A stretch of 64,000 bases of DNA from Heterodontus francisci. Lineage: Eukaryota. Positions 36,301 to 64,000 of the stretch are shown here, piece after piece; position 1 is the first letter of the stretch; the number at the start of each line of letters is the position of its first letter. The stretch is from positions 13,020,001 to 13,084,000 of the forward strand of contig NC_090419.1 of the NCBI RefSeq assembly GCF_036365525.1. The letters run 5' to 3'. The notes under the pieces were generated by a model, which ran no database searches, was not told the origin of the DNA, and saw only the letters and a list, made by a program, of their open reading frames with translations. The position numbers were made by a program, and so were the translations under genes.

Positions 36301-39300
36301 ATCACCGTGTGGGGGAATCACAGACACTGACCCGCTTCCCATCACCGTGTGGGTTAATCACAGACACAGACCCGCGTCCCGTCACCGTGTGGGGGAAATC
36401 ACAGACACAGACCCGCGTCCCATCACCATGTGGGGAATCACAGACACAGACCCGCGTCCCATCACCATGTGGGGAATCACAGACGCAGACCCGCTTCCCA
36501 TCACCATGTGGGTGAATCACAGACCCGCTTCCTATCACCGTGTGGGGGAATCACAGACACAGACCCGCTTCCCGTCACCGTGTGGGGAATCACAGACGCA
36601 GACTCGCGTCCCGTCACCGTGTGGGGGAATCACAGACACAGACCCGTGTCCCATCACCGTCTGGGGAATCACAGACACAGACCCGCTTCCCGTCACCGTG
36701 TGGGGAATCACAGACGCAGACTCGCGTCCCGTCACCGTGTGGGGGAATCACAGACACTGACCCACATCCATCACCATGCTGGGGAATCACAGACACTGAC
36801 CCACGTCCCATCACCGTGTGGGGGAATCACAGACACAGACCCACGTCCCATCACCGTGTGGGGGAATCACAGACACAGACCCACGTCCCATCACCGTGTG
36901 GGGGAATCACAGACACAGACCCACGTCCCATCACCGTGTGGGGGAATCACAGACACAGACCCACGTCCCATCACCGTGTGGGGGAATCACAGACACAGAC
37001 CCACGTCCCATCACCGTGTGGGGGGAATCACAGACACAGACCCACATCCATCACCGTGTGGGGGAATCACAGACACAGACCCACATCCGTCACCGTGTGG
37101 GGGAATCACAGACACAGACCCACATCCGTCACCGTGTGGGGGAATCACAGACACAGACCCACATCCATCACCGTGTGGGGGAATCACAGACACAGACCCA
37201 CATCCATCACCGTGTGGGGGAATCACAGACACTGACCCACGTCCCATCACCGTGTGGGGGAATCACAGACACAGACCCACATCCGTCACCGTGTGGGGGA
37301 ATCACAGACACTGACCCACATCCATCACCGTGTGGGGGAATCACAGACACAGACCCACATCCGTCACCGTGTGGGAGAATCACAGACACTGACCCACGTC
37401 CCATCACCGTGTGGGGGAATCACAGACACAGACCTGCATCTCATCACCGTGTGGGGGAATCACAGACACTGACCCACGTCCATCACCGTGTGGGGGAATC
37501 ACAGACACAGACCCACATCCATCACCGTGTGGGGGAATCACAGACACAGACCCACATCCGTCACCGTGTGGGAGAATCACAGACACTGACCCACGTCCCA
37601 TCACCGTGTGGGGGAATCACAGACACAGACCTGCATCTCATCACCGTGTGGGGGAATCACAGACACTGACCCACGTCCATCACCGTGTGGGGGAATCACA
37701 GACACAGACCCACATCCATCACCGTGTGGGGGAATCACAGACACAGACCCACATCCGTCACCGTGTGGGGGAATCACAGACACAGACCCACATCCATCAC
37801 CGTGTGGGGGAATCACAGACACTGACCCACGTCCATCACCGTGTGGGGGAATCACAGACACAGACCCGCATCCCATCACCGTGTGAGGGAATCACAGACA
37901 CAGACCCACGTCCATCACCATGCGGGGGAATCACAGACACAGACCCACGTCCATCACCATGTGGGGGAATCACAGACACTGACCCACGTCCCATCACCGT
38001 GTGGGGGAATCGCAGACGCAGACCCGCGTCCCATCACCGTGTGGGGGAATCACAGACACAGACCCACATCCATCACCGTGTGGGGGAATCACAGACACAG
38101 ACCCACATCCGTCACCGTGTGGGGGAATCACAGACACAGACCCACATCCGTCACCGTGTGGGGGAATCGCAGACACTGACCCACGTCCCATCACCGTGTG
38201 GGGGAATCGCAGACACTGACCCACGTCCCATCACCGTGTGGGGGAATCGCAGACACTGACCCACGTCCCATCACCGTGTGGGGGAATCACAGACACAGAC
38301 CCACGTCACATCACCGTGTGGGGGAATCACAGACACAGACCCACGTCACATCACCGTGTGGGGGAATCGCAGACACTGACCCGCATCCATCACCGTGTGG
38401 GGGAATCACAGACACAGACCCACGTCACATCACCGTGTGGGGGAATCGCAGACACAGACCCACGTCCCATCACCGTGTGGGGGAAATCACAGACACAGAC
38501 CCGCGTCCCATCACCATGTGGGGAATCACAGACACAGACCCGCGTCCCATCACCATGTGGGGAATCACAGACGCAGACCCGCTTCCCATCACCATGTGGG
38601 TGAATCACAGACCCGCTTCCTATCACCGTGTGGGGGAATCACAGACACAGACCCGCTTCCCGTCACCGTGTGGGGAATCACAGACGCAGACTCGCGTCCT
38701 GTCACCGTGTGGGGGAATCACAGACACAGACCCGTGTCCCATCACCGTCTGGGGAATCACAGACACAGACCCGCTTCCCGTCACCGTGTGGGGAATCACA
38801 GACGCAGACTCGCGTCCCGTCACCGTGTGGGGGAATCACAGACACAGACCCGTGTCCCATCACCGTCTGGGGAATCACAGACACAGACCCGCGTCCCGTC
38901 ACCATGTGGGGGAATCACAGACACTGACCCACATCCATCACCATGCTGGGGAATCACAGACACTGACCCACGTCCCATCACTGTGTGGGGGAATCACAGA
39001 CACAGACCCACGTCCCATCACCGTGTGGGGGAATCACAGACACAGACCCACGTCCATCACCGTGTGGGGGAATCACAGACACAGACCCACGTCCCATCAC
39101 CGTGTGGGGGAATCACAGACACAGACCCACGTCCCATCACCGTGTGGGGGAATCACAGACACAGACCCACGTCCCATCACCGTGTGGGGGAATCACAGAC
39201 ACAGACCCACGTCCCATCACCGTGTGGGGGAATCACAGACACAGACCCACGTCCCATCACCGTGTGGGGGGAATCACAGACACAGACCCACATCCATCAC

Positions 39301-42300
39301 CGTGTGGGGGAATCACAGACACAGACCCACATCCGTCACCGTGTGGGGGAATCACAGACACAGACCCACATCCGTCACCGTGTGGGGGAATCACAGACAC
39401 AGACCCACATCCATCACCGTGTGGGGGAATCACAGACACAGACCCACATCCATCACCGTGTGGGGGAATCACAGACACTGACCCACGTCCCATCACCGTG
39501 TGGGGGAATCACAGACACAGACCCACATCCGTCACCGTGTGGGGGAATCACAGACACTGACCCACATCCATCACCGTGTGGGGGAATCACAGACACAGAC
39601 CCACATCCGTCACCGTGTGGGAGAATCACAGACACTGACCCACGTCCCATCACCGTGTGGGGGAATCACAGACACAGACCTGCATCTCATCACCGTGTGG
39701 GGGAATCACAGACACTGACCCACGTCCATCACCGTGTGGGGGAATCACAGACACAGACCCACATCCATCACCGTGTGGGGGAATCACAGACACAGACCCA
39801 CATCCGTCACCGTGTGGGAGAATCACAGACACAGACCCACATCCGTCACCGTGTGGGGGAATCACAGACACAGACCTGCATCTCATCACCGTGTGGGGGA
39901 ATCACAGACACTGACCCACGTCCATCACCGTGTGGGGGAATCACAGACACAGACCCACATCCATCACCGTGTGGGGGAATCACAGACACAGACCCACATC
40001 CGTCACCGTGTGGGGGAATCACAGACACAGACCCACATCCATCACCGTGTGGGGGAATCACAGACACTGACCCACGTCCATCACCGTGTGGGGGAATCAC
40101 AGACACTGACCCGCTTCCCATCACCGTGTGGGTTAATCACAGACACAGACCCGCGTCCCGTCACCGTGTGGGGGAAATCACAGACACAGACCCGCGTCCC
40201 ATCACCATGTGGGGAATCACAGACACAGACCCGCGTCCCATCACCATGTGGGGAATCACAGACGCAGACCCGCTTCCCATCACCATGTGGGTGAATCACA
40301 GACCCGCTTCCTATCACCGTGTGGGGGAATCACAGACACAGACCCGCTTCCCGTCACCGTGTGGGGAATCACAGACGCAGACTCGCGTCCTGTCACCGTG
40401 TGGGGGAATCACAGACACAGACCCGTGTCCCATCACCGTCTGGGGAATCACAGACACAGACCCGCTTCCCGTCACCGTGTGGGGAATCACAGACGCAGAC
40501 TCGCGTCCCGTCACCGTGTGGGGGAATCACAGACACAGACCCGTGTCCCATCACCGTCTGGGGAATCACAGACACAGACCCGCGTCCCGTCACCATGTGG
40601 GGGAATCACAGACACTGACCCACATCCATCACCATGCTGGGGAATCACAGACACTGACCCACGTCCCATCACTGTGTGGGGGAATCACAGACACAGACCC
40701 ACGTCCCATCACCGTGTGGGGGAATCACAGACACAGACCCACGTCCATCACCGTGTGGGGGAATCACAGACACAGACCCACGTCCCATCACCGTGTGGGG
40801 GAATCACAGACACAGACCCACGTCCCATCACCGTGTGGGGGAATCACAGACACAGACCCACGTCCCATCACCGTGTGGGGGAATCACAGACACAGACCCA
40901 CGTCCCATCACCGTGTGGGGGAATCACAGACACAGACCCACGTCCCATCACCGTGTGGGGGGAATCACAGACACAGACCCACATCCATCACCGTGTGGGG
41001 GAATCACAGACACAGACCCACATCCGTCACCGTGTGGGGGAATCACAGACACAGACCCACATCCGTCACCGTGTGGGGGAATCACAGACACAGACCCACA
41101 TCCATCACCGTGTGGGGGAATCACAGACACAGACCCACATCCATCACCGTGTGGGGGAATCACAGACACTGACCCACGTCCCATCACCGTGTGGGGGAAT
41201 CACAGACACAGACCCACATCCGTCACCGTGTGGGGGAATCACAGACACTGACCCACATCCATCACCGTGTGGGGGAATCACAGACACAGACCCACATCCG
41301 TCACCGTGTGGGAGAATCACAGACACTGACCCACGTCCCATCACCGTGTGGGGGAATCACAGACACAGACCTGCATCTCATCACCGTGTGGGGGAATCAC
41401 AGACACTGACCCACGTCCATCACCGTGTGGGGGAATCACAGACACAGACCCACATCCATCACCGTGTGGGGGAATCACAGACACAGACCCACATCCGTCA
41501 CCGTGTGGGAGAATCACAGACACTGACCCACGTCCCATCACCGTGTGGGGGAATCACAGACACAGACCTGCATCTCATCACCGTGTGGGGGAATCACAGA
41601 CACTGACCCACGTCCATCACCGTGTGGGGGAATCACAGACACAGACCCACATCCATCACCGTGTGGGGGAATCACAGACACAGACCCACATCCGTCACCG
41701 TGTGGGGGAATCACAGACACAGACCCACATCCATCACCGTGTGGGGGAATCACAGACACTGACCCACGTCCATCACCGTGTGGGGGAATCACAGACACAG
41801 ACCCGCATCCCATCACCGTGTGAGGGAATCACAGACACAGACCCACGTCCATCACCATGCGGGGGAATCACAGACACAGACCCACGTCCATCACCATGTG
41901 GGGGAATCACAGACACTGACCCACGTCCCATCACCGTGTGGGGGAATCGCAGACGCAGACCCGCGTCCCATCACCGTGTGGGGGAATCACAGACACAGAC
42001 CCACATCCGTCACCGTGTGGGGGAATCACAGACACAGACCCACGTCCATCACCGTGTGGGGGAATCACAGACACTGACCCAATCCCATCACCGTGTGGGG
42101 GAATCACAGACACTGACCCACGTCCATCACCGTGTGGGGGAATCACAGACATAGACCCGCGTCCCATCACCATGCGGGGGGAATCACAGACACTGACTCA
42201 CGTCCCATCACCGTGTGGGGGAATCGCAGACACAGACCCACGTCCATCACTGTGTGGGGGAATCACAGACACTGACCCACATCCATCACCGTGTGGGGGA

Positions 42301-42690
42301 ATCACAGACACTGACCCGCTTCCCATCACCGTGTGGGTTAATCACAGACACAGACCCGCGTCCCGTCACCGTGTGGGGGAAATCACAGACCCAGACCCGT
42401 GTCCCATCACCGTGTGGGGGAATCACAGACCCAGACCCACGTCCATCACCGTGTGAGGGAATCACAGACCCAGACCCGTGTCCCATCACCGTGTGGGGGA
42501 ATCACAGACCCAGACCCATGTCCATCACCGTGTGAGGGAATCACAGACCCAGACCCGTGTCCCATCACCGTGTGGGGGAATCACAGACCCAGACCCGTGT
42601 CCCATCACCGTGTGGGGGAATCACAGACACAGACCCACGTCCCATCACCGTGTGGGGATCACAAATGGAGACCCACATCCCGTGCAATCT
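30330..42690. repeat. 39/40-bp satellite array (~12.3 kb; CACAGACACAGACCCACGTCCCATCACCGTGTGGGGGAAT)
   Basis: Directly visible periodicity, with variant blocks recurring at kilobase scale. Confidence 0.98.
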
Positions 42691-42974: not shown

Positions 42975-45900
42975 ATAACCACCCGGCTCGACGGAGTACG
43001 AGATGTATAACTACCCGGATAGACAGAGTTTGATCTACATAAATACCCGGATACACGGAGCGTGATATATATAAATACCCGGATACACGGAGTGTGATAT
43101 ATATATATAACCACCCGGATACACGGAGCGTGATATATATATATAACTACCCGGATACACGGAGTGTGATATATATATATAACTACCCGGATACACGGAG
43201 TGTGATATGTATATATAACCACCCGGATACACGGAGCATGATATATATATATAACCACCCGGATACACGGAGTGTGATATATATATATATAACCACCCGG
43301 ATACACGGAGTGTGATATATATATATATAACCACCCGGATACACGGAGCATGATATATATATATAACCACCCGGATACACGGAGTGTGATATATATATAT
43401 AACTACCCGGATACACGGAGTGTGATATATATATATATAACCACCCGGATACACGGAGCATGATATATATATATAACCACCCGGATACACGGAGTGTGAT
43501 ATATATATATATAACCACCCGGATACACGGAGTGTGATATATATATATAACCACCCGGATACACGGAGTGTGATATATATATATATAACCACCCGGATAC
43601 ACGGAGCATGATATATATATATAACCACCCGGATACACGGAGTGTGATATATATATATATATAACCACCCGGATACACGGAGTGTGATATATATATATAT
43701 AACCACCCGGATACACGGAGTGTGATATATATATATATAACTACCCGGATACACGGAGTGTGATATATATATATAACCACCCGGATACACGGAGTGTGAT
43801 ATATATATATAACCACCCGGATACACGGAGTGTGATATATATATATATAACCACCCGGATACACGGAGTGTGATATATATATATAACCACCCGGATACAC
43901 GGAGTGTGATATATATATATAACTACCCGGATACACGGAGCGTGATATATATATATAACTACCCGGATACACGGAGTGTGATATATATATATAACCACCC
44001 GGATACACGGAGCGTGATATATATATATATAACCACCCGGATACACGGAGTGTGATATATATATATAACCACCCGGATACACGGCGTGTGATATATATAT
44101 ATATAAAACCACCCGGATACACGGAGCGTGATATATATATATATAACTACCCGGATACACGGAGTGTGATATATATATATAACCACCCGGATACACGGAG
44201 CGTGATATATATATATAACTACCCGGATACACGGAGCGTGATATATATATATAACTACCCGGATACACGGAGTGTGATATATATATATATAACCACCCGG
44301 ATACACGGAGTGTGATATATATATATAACCACCCGGATACACGGAGCGTGATATATATATATATAACTACCCGGATACACGGAGTGTGATATATATATAT
44401 ATAACTACCCGGATACACGGAGTGTGATATATATATATATAACTACCCGGATACACGGAGTGTGATATATATATATATAACCACCCGGATACACGGAGTG
44501 TGATATATATATATATAACCACCCGGATACACGGAGTGTGATATATATATATAACTACCCGGATACACGGAGTGTGATATATATATATATAACCACCCGG
44601 ATACACGGAGTGTGATATATATATATAACCACCCGGATACACGGAGTGTGATATATATATATATATAACCACCCGGATACACGGAGTGTGATATATATAT
44701 ATAACCACCCGGATACACGGAGTGTGATATATATATATAACTACCCGGATACACGGAGCGTGATATATATATATAACTACCCGGATACACGGAGTGTGAT
44801 ATATATATATAACCACCCGGATACACGGAGCGTGATATATATTTCTATAACTACCCGGATACACGGAGTGTGATATATATATATATAACCACCCGGATAC
44901 ACGGAGCGTGATATATATATATAACTACCCGGATACACGGAGCGTGATATATATATATAACCACCCGGATACACGGAGCGTGATATATATATATAACTAC
45001 CCGGATACACGGAGCGTGATATATATATATAACTACCCGGATACACGGAGCGTGATATATATATATAACTACCCGGATACACGGAGCGTGATATATATAT
45101 ATAACTACCCGGATACACGGAGCGTGATATATATATATAACTACCCGGATACACGGAGCGTGATATATATATATATAACTACCCGGATACACGGAGTGTG
45201 ATATATATATATAACCACCCGGATACACGGAGCGTGATATATATATATAACTACCCGGATACACGGAGCGTGATATATATATATAACCACCCGGATACAC
45301 GGAGTGTGATATATATATATATAACCACCCGGATACACGGAGCGTGATATATATATATATAACCACCCGGATACACGGAGCGTGATATATATATATATAA
45401 CCACCCGGATACACGGAGTGTGATATATATATATATATAACCACCCGGATACACGGAGCGTGATATATATATATATAACCACCCGGATACACGGAGTGTG
45501 ATATATATATATATAACCACCCGGATACACGGAGTGTGATATATATATATATAACCACCCGGATACACGGAGTGTGATATATATATATAACCACCCGGAT
45601 ACACGGAGCGTGATATATATATATAACCACCCGGATACACGGAGCGTGATATATATATATAACCACACGGATACACGGAGTGTGATATATATATATAACC
45701 ACCCGGATACACGGAGTGTGATATATATATATAACCACACGGATACACGGAGTGTGATATATATATATAACCACACGGATACACAGAGTGTGATATATAT
45801 ATATAACCACCCGGATACACGGAGTGTGATATATATATATAACCACCCGGATACACGGAGCGTGATATATATATATATAACCACCCAGATACACGGAGCG

Positions 45901-47364
45901 TGATATATATATATAACCACCCGGATACACGGAGCGTGATATATATATATATAACCACACGGATACACGGAGTGTGATATATATATATATAACCACCCGG
46001 ATACACGGAGTGTGATATATATATATAACCACACGGATACACGGAGCGTGATATATATATATATAACCACACGGATACACGGAGCGTGATATATATATAT
46101 ATAACCACACGGATACACGGAGCGTGATATATATATATATAACCACACGGATACACGGAGCGTGATATATATATATAACCACACGGATACACGGAGCATG
46201 ATATATATATATAACCACACGGATACACGGAGTGTGATATATATATATATATATATATATATAACCACACGGACACACGGAGTGTGATATATATATATAT
46301 ATAACCACACGGATACACGGAGCGTGATATATATATATAACCACACGGATACACGGAGCGTGATATATATATATAACCACACGGACACACGGAGTGTGAT
46401 ATATATATATATAACCNNNNNNNNNNNNNNNNNNNNNNNNNNNNNNNNNNNNNNNNNNNNNNNNNNNNNNNNNNNNNNNNNNNNNNNNNNNNNNNNNNNN
46501 NNNNNNNNNNNNNNNNNNNNNNNNNNNNNNNNNNNNNNNNNNNNNNNNNNNNNNNNNNNNNNNNNNNNNNNNNNNNNNNNNNNNNNNNNNNNNNNNNNNN
46601 NNNNNNNNNNNNNNNNNNTGTGATATATATATATATAACCACACGGATACACGGAGCGTGATATATATATATAACCACACGGATACACGGAGCGTGATAT
46701 ATATATATAACCACCCGGATACACGGAGCGTGATATATATATATAACCACCCGGATACACGGAGCGTGATATATATATATATAACCACCCGGATACACAG
46801 AGTGTGATATATATATATATAACCACCCGGATACACAGAGTGTGATATATATATATAACCACCCGGATACACGGAGTGTGATATATATATATAACCACCT
46901 GGATACACGGAGTGTGATATATATATATAACCACCCGGATACACGGAGTGTGATATATATATATAACCACCCGGATACACGGAGTGTGATATATATATAT
47001 ATAACCACCCGGATACACGGCGTGTGATTATATATAACCAGCCAACTACACGGAGCGTACTATATATAACCACACGGATACACGGAGTATGATATATATA
47101 AACTCCCAGATACAGGGAGCACGAGATGTGTAAATACCCAGATACACAGAGCGTGATATATATATATATATATAACCACCCGACTACACAGAGCATGATA
47201 TATATATATATATAACCACACTGATACACGGAGTATGATATATATATATATATATATAACCACACGGATACACGGAGTGTGATATCTATATATATATATA
47301 TATATATATAACCACACGGATACACGGAGCGTGATATATATATAACCACACGGATACACGGAGT

Positions 47365-47401
<37 letters not shown>

Positions 47402-47542
47402 CCACACGGATACACGGAGTGTGATATATATATATATATATAACCACACGGATACACGGAGCGTGATATCTATATATATATATATAACCACACGGATACA
47501 CGGAGCGTGATATATATATATAACCACACGGATACACGGAGT

Positions 47543-47581
<39 letters not shown>

Positions 47582-49065
47582 CCACACGGATACACGGAGT
47601 GTGATATATATATATAACCACACGGATACACGGAGTGTGATATCTATATATATATAACCACACGGATACACGGAGTGTGAGATATATATATATATAACCA
47701 CACGGATACACGGAGTGTGATATATATATATAACCACACGGATACACGGAGTGTGATATATATATATAACCACACGGATACACGGAGTGTGATATATATT
47801 TATATATATAACCACACGGATACACAGAGCATGATATATATATATATAACCACACGGATACACGGAGTGTGATATATATATATATATATATAACCACACG
47901 GATACACGGAGTGTGATATATATATATATAACCACACGGATACACGGAGTGTGATTATATATAACCAGCCAACTACACGGAGCGTACTATATATAACCAC
48001 GCGGATACACGGAGTATGATATATATAAACTCCCAGATACAGGGAGCACGAGATGTGTAAATACCCAGATACACAGAGCGTGATATATATATATAACCAC
48101 CCGACTACACAGAGCATGATATATATATATATAACCACACGGATACACGGAGTATGATATATATATATATATATATAACCACACGGATACACGGAGTGTG
48201 ATATCTATATATATATAACCACACGGATACACGGAGCGTGATATATATATATAACCACACGGATACACGGAGTGTGATATATATATATATATTATATATA
48301 TATATATATATATAACCACACGGATACACGGAGTGTGATATATATATATATATATAACCACACGGATACACGGAGCGTGATATCTATATATATATATAAC
48401 CACACGGATACACGGAGCGTGATATATATATATAACCACACGGATACACGGAGTGTGATATATATATATATATATATATATAACCACACGGATACACGGA
48501 GTGTGATATATATATATATATATATATATATAACCGCACGGATACACGGAGTGTGATATATATATATAACCACACGGATACACGGAGTGTGATATATATA
48601 TATAACCACACGGATACACGGAGTGTGATATATATATATAACCACACGGATACACGGAGTGTGATATATATATATATATATATATATAACCACACGGATA
48701 CACGGAGTGTGATATATATATATAACCACACGGATACACGGAGTGTGATATATATATATATATATATATATATAACCACACGGATACACGGAGTGTGATA
48801 TATATATATATATATATATAACCACACGGATACACAGAGCATGATATATATATATATAACCACACGGATACACGGAGTGTGATATATATATATATATATA
48901 TATATAACCACACGGATACACGGAGTGTGATATATATATATAAATATAACCACACGGATACACGGAGTGTGATATATATATATATATATAACCACACGGA
49001 TACACGGAGTGTGATATATATATATATATATATATATAACCACACGGATACACGGAGTGTGATAT
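42975..49065. repeat. Compound satellite AACCACCCGGATACACGGAGTGTG(AT)n, ~39-60 bp units; contains gap 46417-46618
   Basis: A constant ~24-bp core alternates with a variable-length (AT)n tract. Confidence 0.97.
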
Positions 49066-51210
49066 GTATAAACTCCCGGATACACAGAGCGTGGGTGTAA
49101 ATACCCAGATACACGGAGCGCGAGATGTATAAACACCCAAATACACAGAGCGCAAGATATATAAATACCTGGATACACGGAGCAGGAGATGTGTAAACAC
49201 CCGGGTCTACGGAGTGAGGGCAATATAAACAGCTGGGTATGCAGAGTGGCAGATATATTAAAACCCAGGTACGCGGAGCGGACAATATATAAACACCAGT
49301 GTAAATGGAGCTGGATATATAAACACCCGGGTACTCAGAGCGGGAGATATATAAACACCCAGGTACTCAGAACGGGAGATATATAAACACCTGGGTACAC
49401 AGAATGGGGGATATATAAACCCCTGGGTGCACGGAGCGGGAGATATATAAACCTCTGGGTGCATGGAGCACAAGATATCTCAACACCCGGGTACACTGAG
49501 CAGGAGATATATAAACACCCGGGTACACTGAGCGGGAGATATATAAACACCCGGGTACACTGAGCGGGAGATATATAAACACCCGGTACACTGAGCGCGA
49601 GATAAATAAACCCCTGGGTACACTGAGCCGGAGATATATAAACACCCGGGTACACGGAGCAGGAGATATATAAACCCCTGGGTGCACGAAGCACAAGATA
49701 TATAAACACCCGGGTACACTGAGCGGGAGATATATAAACACCCAGGTATACTGAGTGGGAGATATATAAACACCCGGGTACACTGAGCAGGAGATATATA
49801 AACACCCGAGTACACAGAGCGGGAGATGTATAAACATTGGGTACACTGAGTGGGAGATATATAAACACCCGGGTACACTGAGCGTGAGATATATAAACCC
49901 CTGGGTACACTGAGCCGGAGACATATAAACACCCGGGTACACTGAGCAGGAGATATATAAACACCCAGATACACAGCGCGAAATATATAAACACCCGGGT
50001 ACGCAGAGCGCAAGATATATAAACACCCGGGTACACTGAGCGGGAGATATATAAACACCCGGGTACACTGAGCGGGAGATATATAAATACCCGGGTACAC
50101 TGAGCACGAGATACATAAGCACCTGGGTACACTGAGCGGGAGATATATAAACGCCCGGGTACACTGAGCAGGATATATATAAACACCGGGGTACACTGAG
50201 CAGGATATATATATATAAATACCCGGGTGCACAGAGCGGGAGATATATAAACACCCGGGTACACTGAGCGGGATATATATAAACACCCGGGTACACTGAG
50301 CGTGAGATACATAAACACCTGGGTACACTGAGCGGGAGATATATAAACACCCGGGTACACTGAGCAGGAGATATATAAACACCCGGGTACACTGAGCGGG
50401 AGATATATAAACGCCCGGGTACACTGAGCAGGAGATATATAAACACCTGGGAACACTGAGCAGGATATATATATAAACACCCGGGTACACAGAGCGGGAG
50501 ATATATAAACACCCGGGTACACTGAACGGTAGATATATAAACACCCGGGTACACTGAGCACGAGATACATAAGCACCTGGGTACACTGAGCGGGAGATAT
50601 ATAAACACCCGGGTACACTGAGCACGAGATACATAAGCACCTGGGTACACTGAGCGGGAGATATATAAACGCCCGGGTACACTGAGCAGGATATATATAA
50701 ACACCGGGGTACACTGAGCAGGATATATATATAAATATCCGGGTGCACAGAGCGGGAGATATATAAACACCCGGGTACACTGAGCGGGATATATATAAAC
50801 ACCCGGGTACACTGAGCGTGAGATACATAAACACCTGGGTACACTGAGCGGGAGATATATAAACACCCGGGTACACTGAGCAGGAGATATATAAACACCT
50901 GGGTACACTGAGCGGGAGATATATAAACGCCCGGGTACACTGAGCAGGAGATATATAAACACCTGGGAACACTGAGCAGGATATATATATATATAAACAC
51001 CCGGGTACACAGAGCAGGAGATATATAAACACCCGGGTACACTGAACGGGAGATATATAAACACCCGGGTACACTGAGCGCGAGATACATAAGCACCTGG
51101 GTACACTGAGCGGGAGATATATAAACACCCGGGTACACAGAGCGAGATATATATAAACACCCGGGTACATGGAACGTGAGATACAAAAACACCTGGATAC
51201 ACTGAGCAGA
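49066..51210. repeat. ~32-bp satellite AAACACCCGGGTACACTGAGCGGGAGATATAT, related to the preceding array
   Basis: Visible periodicity. Its core ACCCGG(G/A)TACAC(T/G)GAGCG is shared with the 42975-49065 array. Confidence 0.95.
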
Positions 51211-51388
51211 TTAAATTTAAGCCCTGTTGCATTTTTTATCTGGTCACCTCCTTGCTTCTTCGCTTCCCCCTTTTGGTCTCCTTTCTTTGGCAGCTCCTTC
51301 AGAACTTGCTGCAAAATTGCAAAGAAAAATATTCCATTACAGAGAGTCTGAGTGAACCCAGAATTATTATAAACCGACCCAGAACCCA

Positions 51389-51503
51389 ACACTGTTCCCG
51401 TCCATCAAACACTCCCAGGACAGGTACAGCACAGGGGTTAGATACCGAGTAAAGCTCCCTCTACACTGTCCCACATCAAACACTCCCTGGACAGGTACAG
51501 CAC
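51389..51503 (+). repeat. ~70-bp tandem repeat, left flank (target) of the Tx1 element
   Basis: CCATCAAACACTCCCAGGACAGGTACAGCACAGGGGTTAGATACCGAGTAAAGCTCCCTCTACACTGTC, ~1.6 units ending in ...ACAGGTACAGCAC. Confidence 0.9.
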
Positions 51504-52277
51504 TGGGATTGGCTGGTCAATTTGGAGCACTTCCTGCCAGCAATCAGGGGGAGCAGCTGCACCTGTGTTGCAGCAATTGCAGAGTGGAGATTGGAGACTG
51601 CAGCAACTGGAGAAAGGTGAATACAGAGTGGAGAGTGGAGACTGCAGCAACTGGAGAAAGTTGAATACAGAGTGGAAACTGCAGCAACTGGAGAGAGAGA
51701 TTGGAGAAAGGTGAATACAGAGTGGAGGGAAACCATCAAGGAAGGCTGCAATTTTTCTGGAGAGGTGGGTGTCAGGGCACCTGAAAGACTATTAAGTTTA
51801 AACTGTTTGGGGGAGGGAGAAGAGGCCTGAAGACTCAGGGGTGGGGCAGCCAAATCCAGTAAGGGCCCCTGTGTTTGTATTGGTGTTTGCACACAGGGAG
51901 CTCCCTCCCCACCCCAACTGCCTGCTCGGGACAGCTGGAGTTGCCCGGGTGAAGACTGTCTTGTTAAAATCAGAAGAGGAGAGTACCGAGCGGCTCCAGC
52001 TGTCCCGGGCGAAGAAGCCTCCCCCAACTGGAAGACAACAAACAAGTTTGGACTAATTGTGATAAAGGTGCTCCAACTGGCAGTTGAAACAAACATCCTT
52101 TTCAGCCTTTCTCTCCCTTCCTCCACTCAGTCGCCTCAATCACCTATCCTCCCCTTTTCCTTTACCATCCTACGCCATCCTCCTCTACTCCCACTCCACC
52201 TTGTTTAAAGTTTGCTTTTTTTAAAAATTGTGTAAATTTGTTTTGTTTCTTGGGGGTGGACGTAGCTCTTAGACCCC

Positions 52278-54317
52278 ATGGCAAGCCCCTCTTCGCCGGT
52301 GGCGGGGCCTTCCCGTTCATATGCTGCTGCGGCTGCTGCAGCTGCACCTGTTGCCCTGTCACCGTTTGCTTTTTTAACAACGAAGCATGGGGTCAAGAGC
52401 TACGTCCACCCGAACATGACTATAGAGGCATGCGTGAAAGCAATGGCCGAGGTTGTCGGCCCTTCGGCCATTGTTGCAGCCTCTAAAATGTACGGGAAGG
52501 CAGTGTTTTTCCTGAAGACCGAGCGGGCGGTGTCCCTGGCTCTGAGCAAGGGGCTCACCGTGGGCGGGACCTTTCTGCCAGTGGACCCCCTGGAGGCCAC
52601 TGCGCAAAGGCTCATTTTATCCAATGTCCCACCCTTCATCCCTGGTGAGCTCCTCCTTCCCCACCTGCACCATCTGGGGGAGGTAAAGACGGGGCTCACC
52701 CCAGTCCCGCTCGGTCTTCGGGAGAACAGCCTCCGACACGTCTACTCCTTCCGCCGCCAGTTATTCATGCAGCTGGCGCGGGAGGAGGTGACAGAGGGCC
52801 ACTTCAATGTCGAATTCCAGGGGACGGCCTACCGCGTCTTCTGGACCTTGGACGGGGTGCGGTGCCATGTCTGTAAGGGGGTGGGGCATGTTCGTAAGAA
52901 CTGCCCCAACCTCCCGGCTGCCAACTCCAACTCAGCGGCCCAGGGTGGCGACGCTGCACCTCCTCCCACCCCCACTACACCACCACCAGATACCATTCAG
53001 TCGGTACCGGAGGCTGTGGTTTTCACGGCCTCCGGCAGGGAGGGGGGTGACCGTCCAAGTGGAAGGAAGGCGCGGAGGAGAAATAAACATCGAGAGGCGC
53101 GTCCCCTGGATATCGTGACACTACCCGAGCCTGAGCTCAGCCCAAGGCCCGATCTCGGGAAGTCAACTTGCCCCAGGGCTGGGCTCAGGCCCAGGGTGAA
53201 TAAAAAAAAGGAGAGTGTGGAGGTGGAGGCCTCTGATGATATGGAGGTCTCTGAGCCTCCGCACACAACTGGGAAAAAGAGGAGAAGGCACCCCTCCACA
53301 GAGGTAACAAGGGGCCCTGAGGCGCAGGGCCCATCTGTTGGAGGGGAGCTGTCTCCTGTTTCGGGTCCCCAGGTTTCCCCTACCGCCACCACCAAGGCTG
53401 CAAAGTCCGGGCAGGTGCTCCCAATTCCTCAGGATGGAGGGAAGGGGATGGCCCCGGTACATGAGGCCCCTACTGAAGGAGTAAGTGGGGCCCTGCTTGT
53501 GGTGGGGGAGCCTGGGGAAGCCGCCCATTCTGCCACTGCTACTGGGTCGGGTGTCCTGAATGAAGGGGAGGGCGAGGCCCCAGAGGGTCGGGCCTCCCAG
53601 CCGGAGTCCACCACCAACCAGGAGACACCCGACCCAGTTATAACTGAGAATGCTGCCCCACCTGCTGGGCCTGTGGGTGCTGGCGGAGCGGGAGATAGCC
53701 TCCTCCCTCCGCCTCCAATCTCGGCTCCGGCTGGTTTCCCGGAGTCGGGAACTTCTGTCTCCCCTGGACCACTCATTGCCCTGGGGACGGAGGTGGAGGG
53801 GGGTCCTGAGCCGCTGGTGCCTACAGGCTCCAGTTTCACAATAGAACCCAGAGAGGACTCCTCCGCCATCGATCCTGGGGGTGGGATCGTGACGGAGGCG
53901 GGACCAGCTGGCGCGGCCGGGACGTCCGCCCCACAGTGTGTGGTGGATGTGTTGGCCGCTGGCGGTGACGACCCGGAGGAGGATGGGGATTCGGTGCGGG
54001 GCACGGAGGATGATCTTGATTCCATCGCCAGTGAGGTGGTGGAGTCCCTCGTGCCTCCCACCGAATCTCCTCTCATCCCCACGGCGGAACTCCGGGATTT
54101 CCTCGCGGCTTGCAGGGGTTGCCGCAATAAAGTTCAGCTGGCCCTCGACCGTTGATCGAATCTGGCGCTGATCATCCAGTCCGTCCGTGCCGCCCTTAAG
54201 ATAGCGGGCAAGCGCGCGGACGTGAAACTGGTTGAGAGGCGCCGTTTTAATGTGTTCCTCAATGGGTTGCTGGGGGAGTGGAGGGCCAGGTGCACTTCCA
54301 CTCCCTCCTCACAGTGA
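52278..54317 (+). CDS. Tx1 ORF1 gag-like protein (in-frame TGA at 54153-54155; frame continues 53 aa to TGA 54315-54317)
   Basis: IEACVKAMAEVVGPSAIVAASKMYGKAVFFL, RLILSNVPPFI, HVYSFRRQLFM and CHVCKGVGHVRKNC are typical Tx1 ORF1 motifs. Confidence 0.88.
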
Positions 54318-54349
54318 GGTGTTGGTGACGGGTTTTAAGTACCTTTGAC

Positions 54350-57300
54350 ATGAAGATAACCATAGCCAGCCTCAACATCAACGGCAGCAGAGGGGCTCAC
54401 CGCAGATTTCACAATCTCTCAGTCCTTAGGGAAGGGAGATACGCGGTGAGCTTTCTGCAGGAAACCCACACCGTTCCGGGAGACGAAGCCACCTGGCTCC
54501 TGGAGTGGCAGGGTGGGGTCTACATGAGTCACCTCACCCCTATTTCTAGTGGGGTGGCTATCTTGTTGGCCCCGACTTTTCAGCCGGAGATCTTGGGGGT
54601 CAAGGAGCTAGTGCCGGGCCGCTTGCTCCACCTCGCCGTTCGCCTGGGTAGCGTGCCGCTCCACTTTGTGAACGTGAACGCGCCCAGGCCCGGCGCTTTG
54701 CAAGCGCGCTTCTTTGAAGAAGTGTCCGCTCTCTTGAGCTCCATCGATAGCGGCGAGTGCATCATCCTCGGGGGGGATTTTAACTGCACCCTCGAGGTGG
54801 GGGATCGCTCCGGTCCCCAGCGCGGCCAAGCGTCGGTGGAGAAGTTGAGGGGACTGATCAGCTCCCTTAACTTGGTGGACGTCTGGCGGAATCTCCATCC
54901 CGACTCCAGCGCCTTCACGCGGAGGTCTGGAGGAGGGGGGTCGCGAATCGACCGCCTCTACATTTCGCAGGCGTACGTCTCCCGCGTTTCGGCGGCCTCC
55001 ATGCGGCTGGTGCCGTGCTCGGACCACCGCCTGGTGTGGGCGGAGTTCACTCCGCTCCGCACGCGGGCGGGGTCCGCGTACTGGCACTTTAACAACCGGC
55101 TGCTGGAGGACGTGCGATTTCGGGACTCGTTCTGTCGATTCTGGGCCGACTGGAGAAGGAAGCAGGGGGGCTTCCCCTCCTTGAGGCTATGGTGGGATGT
55201 GGGCAAGACTCACATCCGCGTCTTCTGTCAGGAGTACGCGAAGGGGTCGACCAAAAGGCGGGAAGCCGAGATCGGGCGCCTTGAGAGGGAGGTGCTCGAC
55301 TTGGAATCCCGCCTCGGTCATGCCGTCGCGGACCCGGCCCTGTGGCAGGCGTACAAAGAGAAGAAGGGCGCGCTGAGGAACCTGCAGCTCATAGGGTCCC
55401 GAGGCGCGTACGTGAGGTCGCGGATCCAGATCCTGGAAGATTTGGACCGCGCCTCACCCTTCTTCTACTCGCTGGAAAAATGGCGGGGGGTCCGTAAGCA
55501 GCTCGTTGAGCTGCTGGCCGACGACGGATCCTCCATCACGGATCCGGAGGGAATGGGCCTCCTGGTCCGGACGTATTACAGTGCGTTGTTCTCTCCGGAT
55601 CCGTCCAGTGAGGATGCGCGCAGAGTTTTGTGGGAGGACCTGCCGCAGGTCAGCCCGGAGGGCGCCGAAGGATTGGAGGCTCCGCTCACGTTGGCGGAGC
55701 TGACTGGCGCCCTCCACCAGCTCTCGAGGGGCAAATCCCCAGGGCTGGATGGGTTGACCGTGGAGTTCCTCAGGGCGTTCTGGGATGTCCTGGGGGACGA
55801 TTACGCGGGGGTCCTGGGGGAAAGCCTGGCGACCGGGGAGATGCCCCTCTCGTGGCGCAGGGCGGTCATCGTCCTGCTGCCGAAGAGGGGCGATCTCCGC
55901 CTGCTTAAAAACTGGCGTCCGGTCTCCCTCCTCAGCACGGATTATAAGATCTTTGCCCGGGCTATGTCTACCCGCCTGGGCTCCGTGCTGGCCCACATGA
56001 TCCACCCCGACCAGTCCTACACGGTCCCGGGCCGGTCCATCCAGGACAACATCCACCTGGTCCGGGACCTGATCCATCTTTCCCAGAGGACTGGTCAGTC
56101 GGTCGCCTTTCTCTCCCTCGATCAGGAGAAGGCGTTCGACAGGGTGGATCACGATTACCTTTTCGGGACTCTGCGCGCTTTCGGACTCGGGCCGCATTTC
56201 GTGGCCCGGGTCCGACTTTTATACGCCGCCGCAGAGTGTCTAGTCAAAGTTAACGGGTCCTTGACGGCGCCCCTTCGATTTGGGAGAGGAGTGCGTCAGG
56301 GGTGCCCCATGTCCGGCCAATTGTATACCATCTGCGTGGAGCCCTTCCTGTGCCTGCTTCGCAGGAGGTTGACGGGATTGGCTCTGCGCGAGCCGGCCAT
56401 GCGGGTCGTCCTCTCGGCTTACGCCGACGACGTGCTCCTCGCAATCACAGATCCCGTTGACTTGCGGAGGATGCGCGACTGCCAGCAGACCTTTTCTGCC
56501 GCGTCCTCCGCGAGGATCAATTGGGAGAAATGTTCCGGACTCCTGGTTGGTCAGTGGCGGGTGGACTCCCTGCCGGAGGAGATGACACCTTTTGCGTGGA
56601 GCACCACGCACCTCCTCTATCTGGGAGTCCACCTTAGCCCCGCTGAGGAAGCCTGGCCGGCAAACTGGCAGGAGTTGGAGGCGAAAGTCACCGCTCGGCT
56701 GGGGCGCTGGACAGGACTGCTCCGAGTGCTTTCCTACAGGGGCCGAGCGTTGGTCATAAACCAACTGGTGGCCTCCATGCTGTGGTACCGGTTGGTCACT
56801 TTGGCCCCGCCCCCTGTATTTGCCACCAAGATCCAGAAGAAACTCGTCGATTTCTTCTGGGGCAAGAGGAAACACTGGGTCTCTGCCGCGGTCCTGAGTC
56901 TCCCGATCGAGGAGGGCGGTCAGTCGCTGGTGTGCGTCCGCACCCAGGCTGCGACTCTCCGCCTTCGGACCCTGCAGAGATACCTGTACGTCGAGCGTCC
57001 TCCCAGATGGTGTGCGCTGGCGACGTATTTTTTCCGCCAGTGTCACTGCCTTCAAGACGACACGCAGCTCCCGGTGGAGTCCGTTAGCCGCGCCTCTCTG
57101 AGGGAGTTGCCTGTCTTTTACCGGGATCTTTTCCGAGTCTGGAACATGGTCGCCTCCAGTCAGGGCGCTCCCCCGCCGGCGGAGGAGAGCGCCTCGGCTG
57201 TCCGGGCGGCCGACTCCGGGGACGGTCCGGCGGGCGGAGGAGTAGCCGGAACCCCCGGGACGCCCCTCACTGCGGGTGGCGAGGGGGCTCGGGAGTGCGG

Positions 57301-58087
57301 AGCGCTCCCGGCCGAGCTGACCCCCGCTCGGCCGGAACTGCTCATCGGACCCAGGCCCCGAAACCCTCCTCGGGAGCCGGTCCCGCACAACCCGAGCCGC
57401 CTCTCGGAAATGCCCTCCGTGCCATTCCAATCGGCGCGGAGGGGTTTCCTGTACGGGCTGCTCCTGCACACTCTCCACTTCCTCGCCCTCGTCAGCCGGC
57501 CGGACACGCCCTGGCGGTCCGCGTTGCCATCTGGCGGCGAGGGGAAACCCCGATGGAGGTCTCTCTACGCGGGAGTCTTCCCCCTTTACATCGGGGACCT
57601 GGGGTGGAGGGTGCTGCACAGAGCAGTCCCGTGCAATAGGCTTTTAAGTAGGTTCACGGACTCCCAGGCCAGCTGTACTTTCTGCGGCCTGGACGAGTCC
57701 GTGTTCCACATTTATACGGAGTGTGCGAGGTTGCAGCCCCTATTTGAGTATCTGAAGGGGCTGCTCCTCAAATTCTGGCTGCACTTCAGTCCCACGCTCC
57801 TGATCTTTGGGCACCCGGTGCGGAGGGGCTCAGGCCGGGAGGAGGATCTCCTCGTCGGTCTGCTCCTGGGCCTGGCCAAGGTGGCAATTCACAGGTCCAG
57901 GTTGCGGGCCGTCGGGGGGTCCGTCCTCCCCGATTGCCTGCCCATCTTCCGCGGTTTCGTTCGCGCCCGGGTGTCCCTGGAAAAGGAGCATGCGGTATCA
58001 GCCGGTACGCTTGAGGCCTTCCGCGACCGGTGGGCACCACAGGGACTGGAGTGCATCGTCAACGCCGAGAATGGCATTTTAATTTGA
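54350..58087 (+). CDS. Tx1 ORF2 polyprotein (APE endonuclease, reverse transcriptase, C-terminal zinc finger), 1245 aa
   Basis: SLNING, LQETH, GGDFN, SRIDR, SDH; KSPGLDG, NWRPVSLL, LDQEKAFDRVDH, GVRQGCPMS, YADD; CTFCG...H...C. Confidence 0.97.
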   Translation: MKITIASLNINGSRGAHRRFHNLSVLREGRYAVSFLQETHTVPGDEATWLLEWQGGVYMSHLTPISSGVAILLAPTFQPEILGVKELVPGRLLHLAVRLGSVPLHFVNVNAPRPGALQARFFEEVSALLSSIDSGECIILGGDFNCTLEVGDRSGPQRGQASVEKLRGLISSLNLVDVWRNLHPDSSAFTRRSGGGGSRIDRLYISQAYVSRVSAASMRLVPCSDHRLVWAEFTPLRTRAGSAYWHFNNRLLEDVRFRDSFCRFWADWRRKQGGFPSLRLWWDVGKTHIRVFCQEYAKGSTKRREAEIGRLEREVLDLESRLGHAVADPALWQAYKEKKGALRNLQLIGSRGAYVRSRIQILEDLDRASPFFYSLEKWRGVRKQLVELLADDGSSITDPEGMGLLVRTYYSALFSPDPSSEDARRVLWEDLPQVSPEGAEGLEAPLTLAELTGALHQLSRGKSPGLDGLTVEFLRAFWDVLGDDYAGVLGESLATGEMPLSWRRAVIVLLPKRGDLRLLKNWRPVSLLSTDYKIFARAMSTRLGSVLAHMIHPDQSYTVPGRSIQDNIHLVRDLIHLSQRTGQSVAFLSLDQEKAFDRVDHDYLFGTLRAFGLGPHFVARVRLLYAAAECLVKVNGSLTAPLRFGRGVRQGCPMSGQLYTICVEPFLCLLRRRLTGLALREPAMRVVLSAYADDVLLAITDPVDLRRMRDCQQTFSAASSARINWEKCSGLLVGQWRVDSLPEEMTPFAWSTTHLLYLGVHLSPAEEAWPANWQELEAKVTARLGRWTGLLRVLSYRGRALVINQLVASMLWYRLVTLAPPPVFATKIQKKLVDFFWGKRKHWVSAAVLSLPIEEGGQSLVCVRTQAATLRLRTLQRYLYVERPPRWCALATYFFRQCHCLQDDTQLPVESVSRASLRELPVFYRDLFRVWNMVASSQGAPPPAEESASAVRAADSGDGPAGGGVAGTPGTPLTAGGEGARECGALPAELTPARPELLIGPRPRNPPREPVPHNPSRLSEMPSVPFQSARRGFLYGLLLHTLHFLALVSRPDTPWRSALPSGGEGKPRWRSLYAGVFPLYIGDLGWRVLHRAVPCNRLLSRFTDSQASCTFCGLDESVFHIYTECARLQPLFEYLKGLLLKFWLHFSPTLLIFGHPVRRGSGREEDLLVGLLLGLAKVAIHRSRLRAVGGSVLPDCLPIFRGFVRARVSLEKEHAVSAGTLEAFRDRWAPQGLECIVNAENGILI

Positions 58088-58280
58088 GTTTTTTTGTTTG
58101 TTTATCTGGTTTAATAAAGTTATTTTAAAACTGTAAATATGTACATAAAGGGGGCCTGAGGGATAAAGGCCCCCTCGATGTGAAAAATATAAAAGGGGCC
58201 TGGGGTATAAAGGTCACCTTGTGGAGAAAAAAAAAGGGTGTTTGTTTAAAAAAAAAGAAAAAAAAAAGAAAAAAAAAAAA

Positions 58281-58686
58281 ACGGGGGTTAGATACAGAGT
58301 AAAGCTCCCTCTACACTGTCCCCATCAAACACTCCCAGGACAGGTACAGTACGGGGGTTAGATACAGAGTAAAGCTCCCTCTACACTGTCCCCATCAAAC
58401 ACTCCCCAGGACAGGTACAGCACGGGGGTTAGATACAGAGTAAAGCTCCCTCTACAAAAAAAAAACGGGGGGTTAGATACAGAGTAAAGCTCCCTCTACA
58501 CTGTCCCCATCAAACACTCCCAGGACAGGTACAGTACGGGGGTTAGATACAGAGTAAAGCTCCCTCTACACTGTCCCCATCAAACACTCCCCAGGACAGG
58601 TACAGCACGGGGGTTAGATACAGAGTAAAGCTCCCTCTACAAAAAAAAAACGGGGGGTTAGATACAGAGTAAAGCTCCCTCTACAC
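58281..58686 (+). repeat. ~70-bp tandem repeat, right flank of Tx1, organised as 185-bp blocks separated by A10 tracts
   Basis: Units start ACGGGGGTTAGATACAGAG at 58281, 58351 and 58422. A10 tracts at 58456-58465 and 58641-58650. Confidence 0.92.
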
Positions 58687-60019
58687 TTGTTGAATAGCCG
58701 GCACTCACAGTTCAGACATGTGAGGAGACGCCCACTTGAGCAGAGTATCAAAGGCGCTCCCTTGGGTCCTGTACCCTGGCTTGGAGGGTGGGTGGGTTAT
58801 TGGGAACCCTGCCCCTGCTGCAGAGGTTGCCCGGAGGCCCAGTGGAGGCAGGGTTAGGCCTGGCCATGACGCCTCCCCATGGCTGAATATCCTGGCGGCT
58901 GCGGTCGGGAGAGGGGGAGCTGCACGGCTGCCCCAATCCGTTGGGGTGTGGGGGGGGCGGTGGGTTTTACCTTTTGCCCCTGGCATGTCGAGTGGTCTGT
59001 AGTCCAACTGCCGTCCGGTTCTGACCGTGGTGCGTGCGTGCGTGCGTGCGAGCGAGCGACTGCCTCCCCTGCTGAATTTATCAGGGTTGCGATTTGTAAG
59101 TAGAACTCTCCGGAAAATGAAAGCACGTGAGGCGAAGAGAAATGCCCGAGGCCCCAGTCTGCCTCACAATGGGTTCTGCCGAGTCGGCAGAGGGTGCGGT
59201 GGGGGTGGGGGAGGGGGGGGGGGCGGATGAAGGGCGGTTTCTGATTCCGCACTGGATCCGTGCGAGTTCACTGGATAATCCCACATTTATCCCTTTAATC
59301 CGAGGCTCTAAGCGCATCTGTTTCGGTCAATTGTCCCAGAGGAGAGGGGAACTCTGAGACCCTTGACCGTTGCCCTTTCTCAGCGTTGGCGCAGGTCATG
59401 GGGGCTTGGAGCCGTTCCAACTGGCTGGGGAAGCTGCTTCCCTTTTCAGTCTGGTTCCCTCTCCTGCCCCCAGCCCGGAATTAAACAGACTGGCTGCGTT
59501 TCCCGCACACACAGAGCTACGAGAGCCACCTCTTCCCAGAGCCTCTTAACAGCAGCTACGTCCCTCACTCCACAACCTGCGACCCCTCTCTCCCCACCAC
59601 CCCACTGCCCCAGCACCCCCTCCCCATCTCTGTAACCTCCTCCAGCCCCCTACGACCCCTCCCTACCTCTGTAACATCCTCCAGCCCCCTACAACCCTCC
59701 GAGATCTCTAACCCCGATTCCCATCGCTCCACCATTGGCGGCCGTGCCTTCAGCTGCCTGGGGCCCTGAGCTCTGGAATTCCCTCCCTGAACCTCTCCGC
59801 CTCTCTCTCTCCTCTTTTAAGACGCTCCTTAAAAACCGACCGAGCTTTTGGTCGCCTGTCCCTAATAGCTCCTGATGTGGCTCGGGGTCAAAATTTGTTT
59901 GATTTATGCTCCATGGGGTCTCAACTGGAGCAGCAATTGGGGTTTTGATCGTTGCCCTGGTTTAGGGAGGGGAATTGCAGCAGGGCTCCTGTTCCTGATC
60001 AACAGGCAGTAACCCCTGT

Positions 60020-61907: not shown

Positions 61908-63070
61908 GGTCAGTACTGAGGGAGCGCCGCACTGTCGGAAGGTCAGTACCGAGGGAGCGCCGCACTGTCGGAGGGTCAGTACTGAGGGAGCGCCACACTG
62001 TCGGAAGGTCAGTACCGAGGGAGCGCCGCACTGTCGGAGGGTCAGTACTGAGGGAGCGCCACACTGTCGGAAGGTCAGTACCGAGGGAGCGCCGCACTGT
62101 CGGAGGGTCAGTGCTGAGGGAGCGCCGCGCTGTTGGAGGGTCAGTACTGAGGGAGCGCCGCACTGTCGGAGGGTCAGTACTAAGGGAGCGCCACGCTGTC
62201 GGAGTGTCAGTACTGAGGGAGTGCCGCACTGTCGGAGGGTCAGTACCGAGGGAGCGCCGCACTGTCGGAGGGTCAGTACTGAGGGAGCGCCGGACTGTCG
62301 GAGTGTCAGTACTGAGGGAGTGCCGCACTGTCGGAGGGTCAGTACTGAGGGAGTGCCGCACTGTCGGAGGGTCAGTACTGAGGGAGTGCCGCACTGTCGG
62401 AGGGTCAGTACTGAGGGAGCGCCGCACTGTCGGAGGGTCAGTACTGAGGGAGCTCCGCACTGTCGGAGGGTCAGTACTGAGGGAGCGCCGCACTGTCGGA
62501 GGGTCATGACTGAGGGAGCGCCGCACTGTCGGAGGGTCATGACTGAGGGAGCGCCGCACTGTCGGAGGGTCATGACTGAGGGAGCGCCGCACTGTCGGAG
62601 GGTCAATACCGAGGGAGTGCCGCACTGTTGGAGGGTCAGTACCGAGGGAGCGCTGCACTGTCGGAGGGTCAGTACCGAGGGAGCGCCACACTGTTGGAGA
62701 GTCAGTACCGAGGGAGCGCCGCACTGTCGGAGGTGCGGTCTTTCAGGATGAGACATTAAACCAAGTCCATGTCTGCTCTCTCAGGTGGATGTCAGAGATC
62801 CCACGGCCACAACTGGGAGGAGCGGGGTGGGGTTTGGAGGGATGGGTGGGGGAGTGGATGGAGTTCTCTCCGACTTCCTGGGGCCAATTGCCATCCCTGA
62901 ACCAACATCACTAAACAAACCGATGATCTGGGGTCGTTATCACATTGCTGTTTGCGGGATCCTGCTGTGCGCAGAATGGCTGCTGCGCTTCCGACATTAC
63001 AGCAGTGACCGCACTTCAACTGAAAGTTATTCACTGGCACTTTGGAAAGTCTGGAGGTGTTGAGAGGCAC
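61908..63070 (+). repeat. 33-bp minisatellite (~25 units, 61908-62732) embedded in a Deu-domain (SacSINE1-like) SINE
   Basis: The last unit runs into GGAGGTGCGGTCTTTCAGGATGAGACATTAAACC and ...CACATTGCTGTTTGCGGGATCCTGCTGTGCGCAGAATGGCTGC, typical of the Deu-SINE body. Confidence 0.82.
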
Positions 63071-63712: not shown

Positions 63713-64000
63713 GAATCCAATGGACCCAAACCCCTTCCCGTTCACTCCCACTGTACACAATCCCAATGGACCCAAACGCCTTCCCGTTCATTCCCACTGT
63801 ACACAATCCCAATGGACCCAAACGCCTTCCCGTTCATTCCCACTGTACACAATCCCAATGGACCCAAACCCCTTCCCATTCACTCCCATTGTACACAATC
63901 CTAATGGACCCAAACCCCTTCCCGTTCACTCCCATTGTACACAATCCCAATGGACCCAAACGCCTTCCCGTTCATTCCCACTGTACACAATCCCAATGGA
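63713..64000. repeat. 46-bp tandem repeat (AATCCCAATGGACCCAAACGCCTTCCCGTTCATTCCCACTGTACAC)
   Basis: TGGACCCAAA recurs every 46 bp (63721, 63767...). Confidence 0.93.

Follow-up and report, generated by a model that had tools for sequence, protein, structure and literature searches.

A young Tx1-clade LINE family in the shark Heterodontus francisci with a strong preference for one position of a 70-bp minisatellite

The stretch of DNA analysed here (the window) is 64,000 nucleotides long and comes from the shark Heterodontus francisci (contig NC_090419.1, positions 13,020,001 to 13,084,000 of the forward strand). It contains a full-length, 6.7-kb long interspersed nuclear element (LINE) of the Tx1 clade at 51504-58226, flanked on both sides by a 70-bp minisatellite. 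The element is probably a copy of a young Tx1-type family that lies mostly at one exact position of the minisatellite, where its endonuclease likely cuts, and whose RNA likely begins, and often ends, within the repeat. The strongly phase-specific family is real. Its target had not been recognised as a described one in an earlier note on this DNA, and no description was found in the searchable literature; Repbase, subscription journals and supplements, which lie outside that search, may hold one.

The left array (51389-51503) terminates ...CCTGGACAGGTACAGCAC, its last letters up to 51503 being GGTACAGCAC. Past the A-rich tail the minisatellite picks up at 58282 as CGGGGGTTAG, which is the in-register continuation. 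The exact register and the end at 51503 had been seen correctly in the earlier note, but the window reads CTGG where the note gave CAGG. On the right side it had recognised the continuation of the repeat and missed the split A tail, the poly(A)-led blocks and the target-like sequence of 51504-51510 (TGGGATT).

Insertion phase and target preference

Genome-wide counts are exact-motif matches in the shark genome of 6.0 Gb. Intact unit joints of the repeat number 20,012, and poly(A)-led repeat starts at the insertion phase give 10,909 overlapping matches, or about 4,300 sites (about 2.5 matches per site). The repeat totals at least 24,000 units, a lower bound of about 0.03% of the genome; near the end of C1, where the first 100 intact joints span 12 Mb, it makes up about 0.06%. 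A control with poly(A) before one other phase gave a single match. Among the poly(A)-to-repeat joints in the fetched loci (numbered L below), 195 of 205 fall at phase 0-2 of about 70, the phase values being accurate to about 1 base.

The 5' ends of the 30 best-scoring copies all lie directly after CAGGTACAGCAC. In a set of 30 copies picked by genome order, the repeat at the insertion phase precedes 27, and poly(A) plus C precedes the other three, cases in which another copy has inserted into the element's own target-like start. The 5' motif of the window copy's subfamily has 510 matches in the genome. On the 3' side, 25 of the 30 best-scoring copies run into the repeat, three into the 5' end of another element and two into a GGGTGTTTG piece. 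The insertion register is far beyond chance.

The sequence right after the poly(A) overcounts on-target copies, because repeat pieces travel with the element. A less biased sample of 3' ends was obtained from 70 of the 100 listed places for the ORF2-end motif, those near chromosome ends being classed by eye. Among the first 30 places (C1, 5.8-16.2 Mb), 28 end in the repeat or in an element 5' end, one is interrupted and one is unclear. The mid-arm sample covers 40 of 42 places (C1 33-272 Mb, C2 8-175 Mb): 35 end at unrelated sites, two in the repeat, and three are interrupted. Extended to the whole genome, the mid-arm density (42 in 472 Mb) would account for about 17% of copies, and the overall on-target share, extrapolated from the two chromosomes, is about 80%. 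According to passages of PMC4494074, a Tx1 family is regarded as target-specific if one sequence type occurs in more than 20% of its flanks. Here 30 of the 66 informative 3' ends taken in genome order lie at the target; mid-arm copies are over-represented among them, and correcting for this gives about 80%. On the 5' side, the exact target 10-mer precedes the exact 5' motif in 345 of its 510 matches.

The family thus shows strong target preference and not strict specificity, because 35 of 40 mid-arm copies are off-target. The earlier note had proposed specificity for one phase of the minisatellite. The phase and an enrichment far above the 0.03% abundance are borne out, but strictness is not. 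Of the flank tables it had suggested, the one before the 5' ends is clear (30/30 in phase), whereas the one after the poly(A) is confounded by carried repeat pieces. It had expected random phases or unrelated flanks if it were wrong; the phase is not random, while unrelated flanks do occur in the mid-arm copies.

An ordinary, strictly site-specific Tx1 element, whose endonuclease alone picks a pre-existing host repeat, is in our judgement unlikely. Such an element would leave most copies on-target, as found here, and would be suited by the existence of arrays without poly(A) or element (L077, L089) and by the roughly 10-bp recognition reported for the Tx1L endonuclease in passages of PMC1919474. 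The carried pieces would then be incidental, and the clean unit upstream of the element would reflect a choice of perfect targets. The 35 off-target mid-arm copies speak against this, as do the junctions and arrays described in the following sections.

Target duplication and probable cut site

Mid-arm copies are flanked by a duplication of 10-17 bp (mode 13) in 26 of 40 cases, compared with 1 of 200 mismatched pairs. On target, 3' joints lie at A/C-G4/5-TTAG, the first slash marking the insertion point. After six rows not at the repeat were dropped, 24 truncated on-target joints were left. Nineteen of them retain 5-16 target bases past the A/C point and five are near blunt; no truncated joint at any other repeat phase was found among the fetched loci. 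Since these copies lack the element 5' end, the first nick is placed at the insertion phase independently of any RNA leader. The overlap of at most 1-2 bp, without a long duplication, that the earlier note described is therefore accurate for the window copy but not for the family. Full-length copies likely hide the duplication because they bring along a repeat-derived leader of about 28 nt.

A probable repeat-derived 5' leader

The units preceding full-length copies suggest an element RNA whose 5' end lies within the upstream repeat and whose leader replaces the target sequence, as passages of PMC6795142 describe for R2. Sixty-two junctions were compared, 30 with two units and 19 with three. 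Whenever the two preceding units had a local variant in common, the last 28 nt lacked it (13 of 13 cases, 10 loci); one unit earlier this held for one of four cases (p=0.006). The mismatch rate in the last 28 nt before a full-length element is 13/840 versus 32/840. CAC is followed by T at 75 of the first 100 junctions, compared with 7 of the first 100 intact joints, and in L222 and L224 diverged arrays turn standard about 30 nt before the element. Truncated copies do lie in variant units. Neither the T, common at junctions and rare in arrays, nor the entry of truncated copies into variant units agrees with an endonuclease that merely chooses perfect host targets.

Passages of PMC6795142 give 9-36 nt of upstream target in R2 RNA (28 nt in R2Ol), linked to the 5' junction. 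The roughly 28 nt of upstream target that the shark RNA would carry resembles this arrangement and, judged from the DNA alone, upstream target bases appear to be replaced by an RNA-borne copy as in R2. Unlike R2, which has a restriction-like endonuclease and a ribozyme, the shark element has an APE-type (apurinic/apyrimidinic) endonuclease and no ribozyme was found: a crude descriptor of the hepatitis delta virus-like fold, run without a positive control, gave no match in nine 5' ends, and an Rfam scan of 51300-58800 gave none.

Repeat pieces away from the target

Repeat pieces are present in 13 of the 35 off-target copies. They start at the insertion phase and lie between the element poly(A) and the last poly(A). 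Their lengths range from 6 to 291 nt, nine of the 13 being 18 nt or more, and 11 of the 13 are enclosed by a duplication of at least 10 bp. L018 provides another example. Locus L090 has a 285-bp array with poly(A) and a duplication and no element, and in L219/220 a 14-bp duplication encloses 1.6 units together with 90 nt of the element 5' end. Of six mid-arm arrays found by the intact-target pattern, five have poly(A) at the end or start and four have a duplication, again in disagreement with a strictly specific element that uses only a host repeat.

In L1 3' and orphan transduction a downstream flank is carried between two poly(A) tracts inside the duplication, and element-free inserts occur. 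The shark pieces share these features and match what read-through and 3' transduction would leave; unlike in L1, the cargo would be the element's own preferred target. The DNA evidence for carriage of the target at both element ends is good, and the element likely seeds new target arrays. In a second organism, contigs from two studies lead from the 3' UTR (untranslated region) through A-rich letters into the same repeat phase, with 38 letters on the short side. A third organism has the repeat and related ORF2 pieces in contigs, among which no joint was seen. A higher depth of the repeat over the 5' UTR in a guessed-RNA than in a DNA run was not used as a sign of repeat transcription, because contig depth cannot rank parts, and a near-identical 5' contig in organism C (depth 8) was set aside as possible contamination.

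The presence of the repeat after the poly(A) even at off-target sites, the common head-to-tail stacks and the fact that the nearest named relative is Tx1L would also suit an explanation without targeting, in which the repeat either belongs to the tail of the element or lies inside a parent DNA transposon as one of its own repeats, the situation of Tx1L in Tx1D. This is highly improbable and already largely refuted. Repeat is absent from 22 of the 35 off-target copies, and left arrays are long, lack poly(A) and can have local variants in common with the right side. A parent transposon of the Tx1L or Tx1-Mar type was rejected, since 60 left and 54 right array flanks have no adjoining sequence in common and the arrays end at all phases.

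Proposed mechanism

The first nick would be made between A and C and the second about 13 nt downstream, and reverse transcription would be target-primed from the poly(A). RNA carrying about 28 nt of upstream repeat and the target-like first 7 nt of the element would pair with the target, overwrite it and so hide the duplication. The element's own 5' end also serves as a target, producing head-to-tail stacks. Poly(A)-bounded repeat pieces are found in off-target duplications with or without the element; these would arise by read-through and 3' transduction and may become new targets. An RNA that begins and often ends inside the repeat would explain repeat pieces at unrelated sites.

A more far-reaching proposal, which we put forward tentatively, is that element and repeat form a self-feeding pair. 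The LINE would build most of its own landing sites by means of the repeat at both RNA ends, homogenise them by the leader and be the main author of the repeat's spread. The target would thus be made by the parasite and not borrowed from the host.

Several observations weigh against the proposed mechanism. Many arrays near chromosome ends have ragged starts or ends at any phase and no poly(A); therefore an older spread or other routes for the repeat exist besides carriage by the element. Local duplication, not insertion, lies behind some poly(A) chains and stacks (the 185-bp unit of the window, L062 and the four-copy stack on C23), so the counts are not counts of independent events. Only 5 of 15 loci have local variants that occur in both the left and the right array (p about 0.035). 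The junctions of L183, L185, L186 and L190 keep local variants up to the G run, so the crossover point must vary, and the last unit is somewhat cleaner in its far half too (25/930 versus 41/930, p=0.06). Among the 13 carried pieces are four of just 6-11 nt, and no empty allele was visible in the contig data. That seeded arrays are later hit by the element is something we infer, and it has to be counted on this side as well. Finally, apart from an A ahead of the cut (22/29), off-target sites have little in common with the target, and a simple endonuclease motif therefore does not explain the preference.

This poor resemblance would be expected if targeting depended mainly on RNA-DNA pairing, with a loose endonuclease nicking widely, the repeat at both RNA ends annealing to the array and the phase being inherited from the RNA. 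Full-length copies seen are all on-target and off-target ones are truncated, in agreement with such pairing, and flanking target sequence in the RNA raises R2Ol efficiency (passages of PMC6795142). Nevertheless, we regard pairing as the main determinant as very unlikely. Truncated on-target copies without the leader still end 5-16 nt past the same point, the length of the off-target duplication, and the first nick is therefore fixed at the insertion phase. The carried pieces end in poly(A), and priming therefore occurs at poly(A). Cutting at the repeat by the endonuclease, with an RNA that carries repeat sequence, remains the preferred explanation.

Organization of the window copy

The features of the element and its flanks, all on the + strand, are as follows.

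51389..51503, +, left minisatellite array: 1.6 units that have diverged further than the right blocks, stopping at the insertion phase; same end in 30/30 best-scoring copies
51476..51510, +, 5' leader, likely derived from the repeat and carried in by the element: roughly 28 nt of upstream sequence followed by the target-like TGGGATT; approximate boundaries, based on the junction comparisons, L222 and L224
51504..52277, +, 5' UTR: sister subfamilies have other 5' UTRs, nearly all starting N-GGGATTGGCT or a close variant
52278..54155, +, open reading frame 1 (ORF1): 625 aa; CCHC knuckle (CHVCKGVGHVRKNC) seen in the translation
54350..58087, +, open reading frame 2 (ORF2): 1245 aa; APE-type endonuclease (PF03372) and reverse transcriptase (PF00078)
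58088..58226, +, 3' UTR: contains AATAAA plus two tandem copies of a 44-bp unit; 3' ends differ between copies
58227..58281, +, A-rich tail: two A tracts enclosing a 12-nt non-repeat piece (58236-58247)
58282..58650, +, pair of nearly identical blocks, each 2.5 repeat units long: both begin at the insertion phase and end in poly(A)
58651..58687, +, terminal repeat block: the only right-flank block joining unique DNA

The window copy is probably defective, because its ORF1 is shortened (625 aa versus 678-679 aa in 10 of 20 sister loci) and ORF2 residue 110 is Asn instead of the Tyr found in Tx1L and in 16 of 16 sister copies holding the motif. A Pfam search with its ORF1 gave no match. In ORF2, the alignment to Tx1L breaks at a low-complexity linker (57140-57330, about residues 945-995), where several copies have deletions.

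The right flank consists of three poly(A)-led blocks (58282-58455, 58466-58640 and 58651-58687). The first two form a 185-bp duplication with 99% identity and are likely one carried piece that was locally duplicated in tandem, and the third is likely the original right half of the target array. The 12-nt piece in the tail, likely a carried flank, follows the poly(A) only in the window copy and in one copy on C44. The C44 copy was rejected as a parent of the window copy, as none of the top private variants are common to both and the 5' UTRs differ. Circular insertion of whole units, suggested by a window array that starts and ends at CACT, is not general, since array starts and ends fall at all phases. 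An AGTAAA in the repeat was considered as a poly(A) signal; 52 of 106 piece ends lie 9-23 nt after it, but many lie earlier and L062 inflates the count, so the case is weak. In L062 (1444-2340) a poly(A)-containing 46-bp derivative of the repeat has been amplified as a tandem array of its own.

Other minisatellites, with units of 22, 33, 39, 32-36 and 46 bp, make up about half of the window (1-6211, 26130-26604, 30337-42657, 43006-51207, 61908-62733 and 63717-64000). Two stretches of N, at 25391-25590 and 46417-46618, are far from the element.

Placement in the Tx1 clade and comparison with known elements

ORF2 is 55% identical to that of Xenopus Tx1L (YTX2_XENLA, P0014) over 948 aa. Its database relatives include a 93% identical piece from Heterodontus francisci and a 74% identical one from a stingray. 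In a reverse transcriptase tree the element, Tx1L and proteins of ray, sturgeon and turtle make up a single clade supported at 100/100. The tree has 21 rows and a midpoint root without outgroup, and contains no labelled Keno, Mutsu, Dewa or Kibi rows. An upstream ORF1 with a CCHC knuckle is a feature of the Tx1 clade. The window copy has such an ORF1, together with the endonuclease and reverse transcriptase of ORF2 and the grouping with Tx1L; the family adds a poly(A) tail and a target-site duplication, the latter masked in the window copy. Domains, tree position, tail and duplication all place the element in the Tx1 clade. The assignment to Tx1 in the earlier note is thereby upheld.

Tx1L inserts into the DNA transposon Tx1D (passages of PMC4494074 and PMC1919474). 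The shark element resembles it in having two ORFs, an APE endonuclease, a specific target and a reverse transcriptase of the same clade, but its target is a free minisatellite without common flanks. Passages of PMC4494074 describe target preference, a 16-nt duplication and tandem insertions at one site for Tx1-Mar, SINEU-3 and other Tx1 families. The shark family likewise shows preference instead of strict specificity, and differs from those passages in that the element appears to carry and seed its target. Transposons, small nuclear RNA genes and microsatellites are named as Tx1 targets in passages of the same text, and the legend of its tree figure names satellites among the known targets. 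An RNA gene as target (Keno, Mutsu or Dewa type) was rejected, as Rfam gave no match near threshold in 51300-58800, a scan in which spacers would not show. Tx1-1_ACar is a telomere-specific Tx1 element (passages of PMC10088271). Like it, the shark element is of the Tx1 clade, has a telomere-like GGGTTAG after the cut site and has copies that gather near chromosome ends. Targeting of (TTAGGG)n was rejected, since no poly(A)-to-telomere-repeat joint occurs in the shark genome, in which the assembled chromosome ends may be incomplete.

Through this family the Tx1 clade gains a target class represented by thousands of copies that can be dated. Retrotransposition by an element that targets it offers a route for the spread of a dispersed minisatellite. 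Later use of seeded arrays, if it occurs, would explain why a site-specific element does not exhaust its sites, and may throw light on the repeat-rich chromosome ends of sharks. From the leader it would seem that an APE-type element makes clean full-length 5' joints in the manner of R2. For practical work, tabulating flanks from the first base past the poly(A) exaggerates specificity. With an identical reverse transcriptase piece in at least 150 copies, mostly in open frames, the family provides a site-preferring vertebrate LINE that could be tested in vitro.

Family size, age and subfamilies

The ORF2-end motif has 3,231 exact matches in the genome, and the listed places cluster on small chromosomes and, elsewhere, in roughly the last 20 Mb before a chromosome end. 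The family is young. A 200-aa reverse transcriptase piece is 100% identical in at least 150 copies, most of them in open frames near 1,250 codons. Several subfamilies have a common ORF2 (96-99% identity) and different 5' UTRs and ORF1s. In L003, L011, L014, L022, L213 and other loci the 5' UTR and ORF1 are only 75-89% identical on such an ORF2, which suggests repeated 5' replacement in the evolution of the family. The very start of most subfamilies (51504-51530 in the window, and sister 5' ends) keeps GATTGGCT, which we take to be an inverted CCAAT box. It is a candidate internal promoter that could have been made from the target by two changes.

Four full-length copies lie head to tail in L214-L216 (C23, 59.79-59.81 Mb) with 6.74-kb spacing and near-identical spacers, and this stack likely arose by tandem duplication. 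An identical internally deleted derivative, with the same 5' break after the target-like start, is found at two loci (L098:7749 and the second element of L126) and is possibly a non-autonomous element. L102 contains the inverted 3' half of an element, and L065 and L072 a short inverted repeat block beside the 5' end; these are possibly products of twin priming. L221 and L223 on C21, 18 Mb apart, have flank, array and insertion in common and represent a segmental duplication and not independent insertions.

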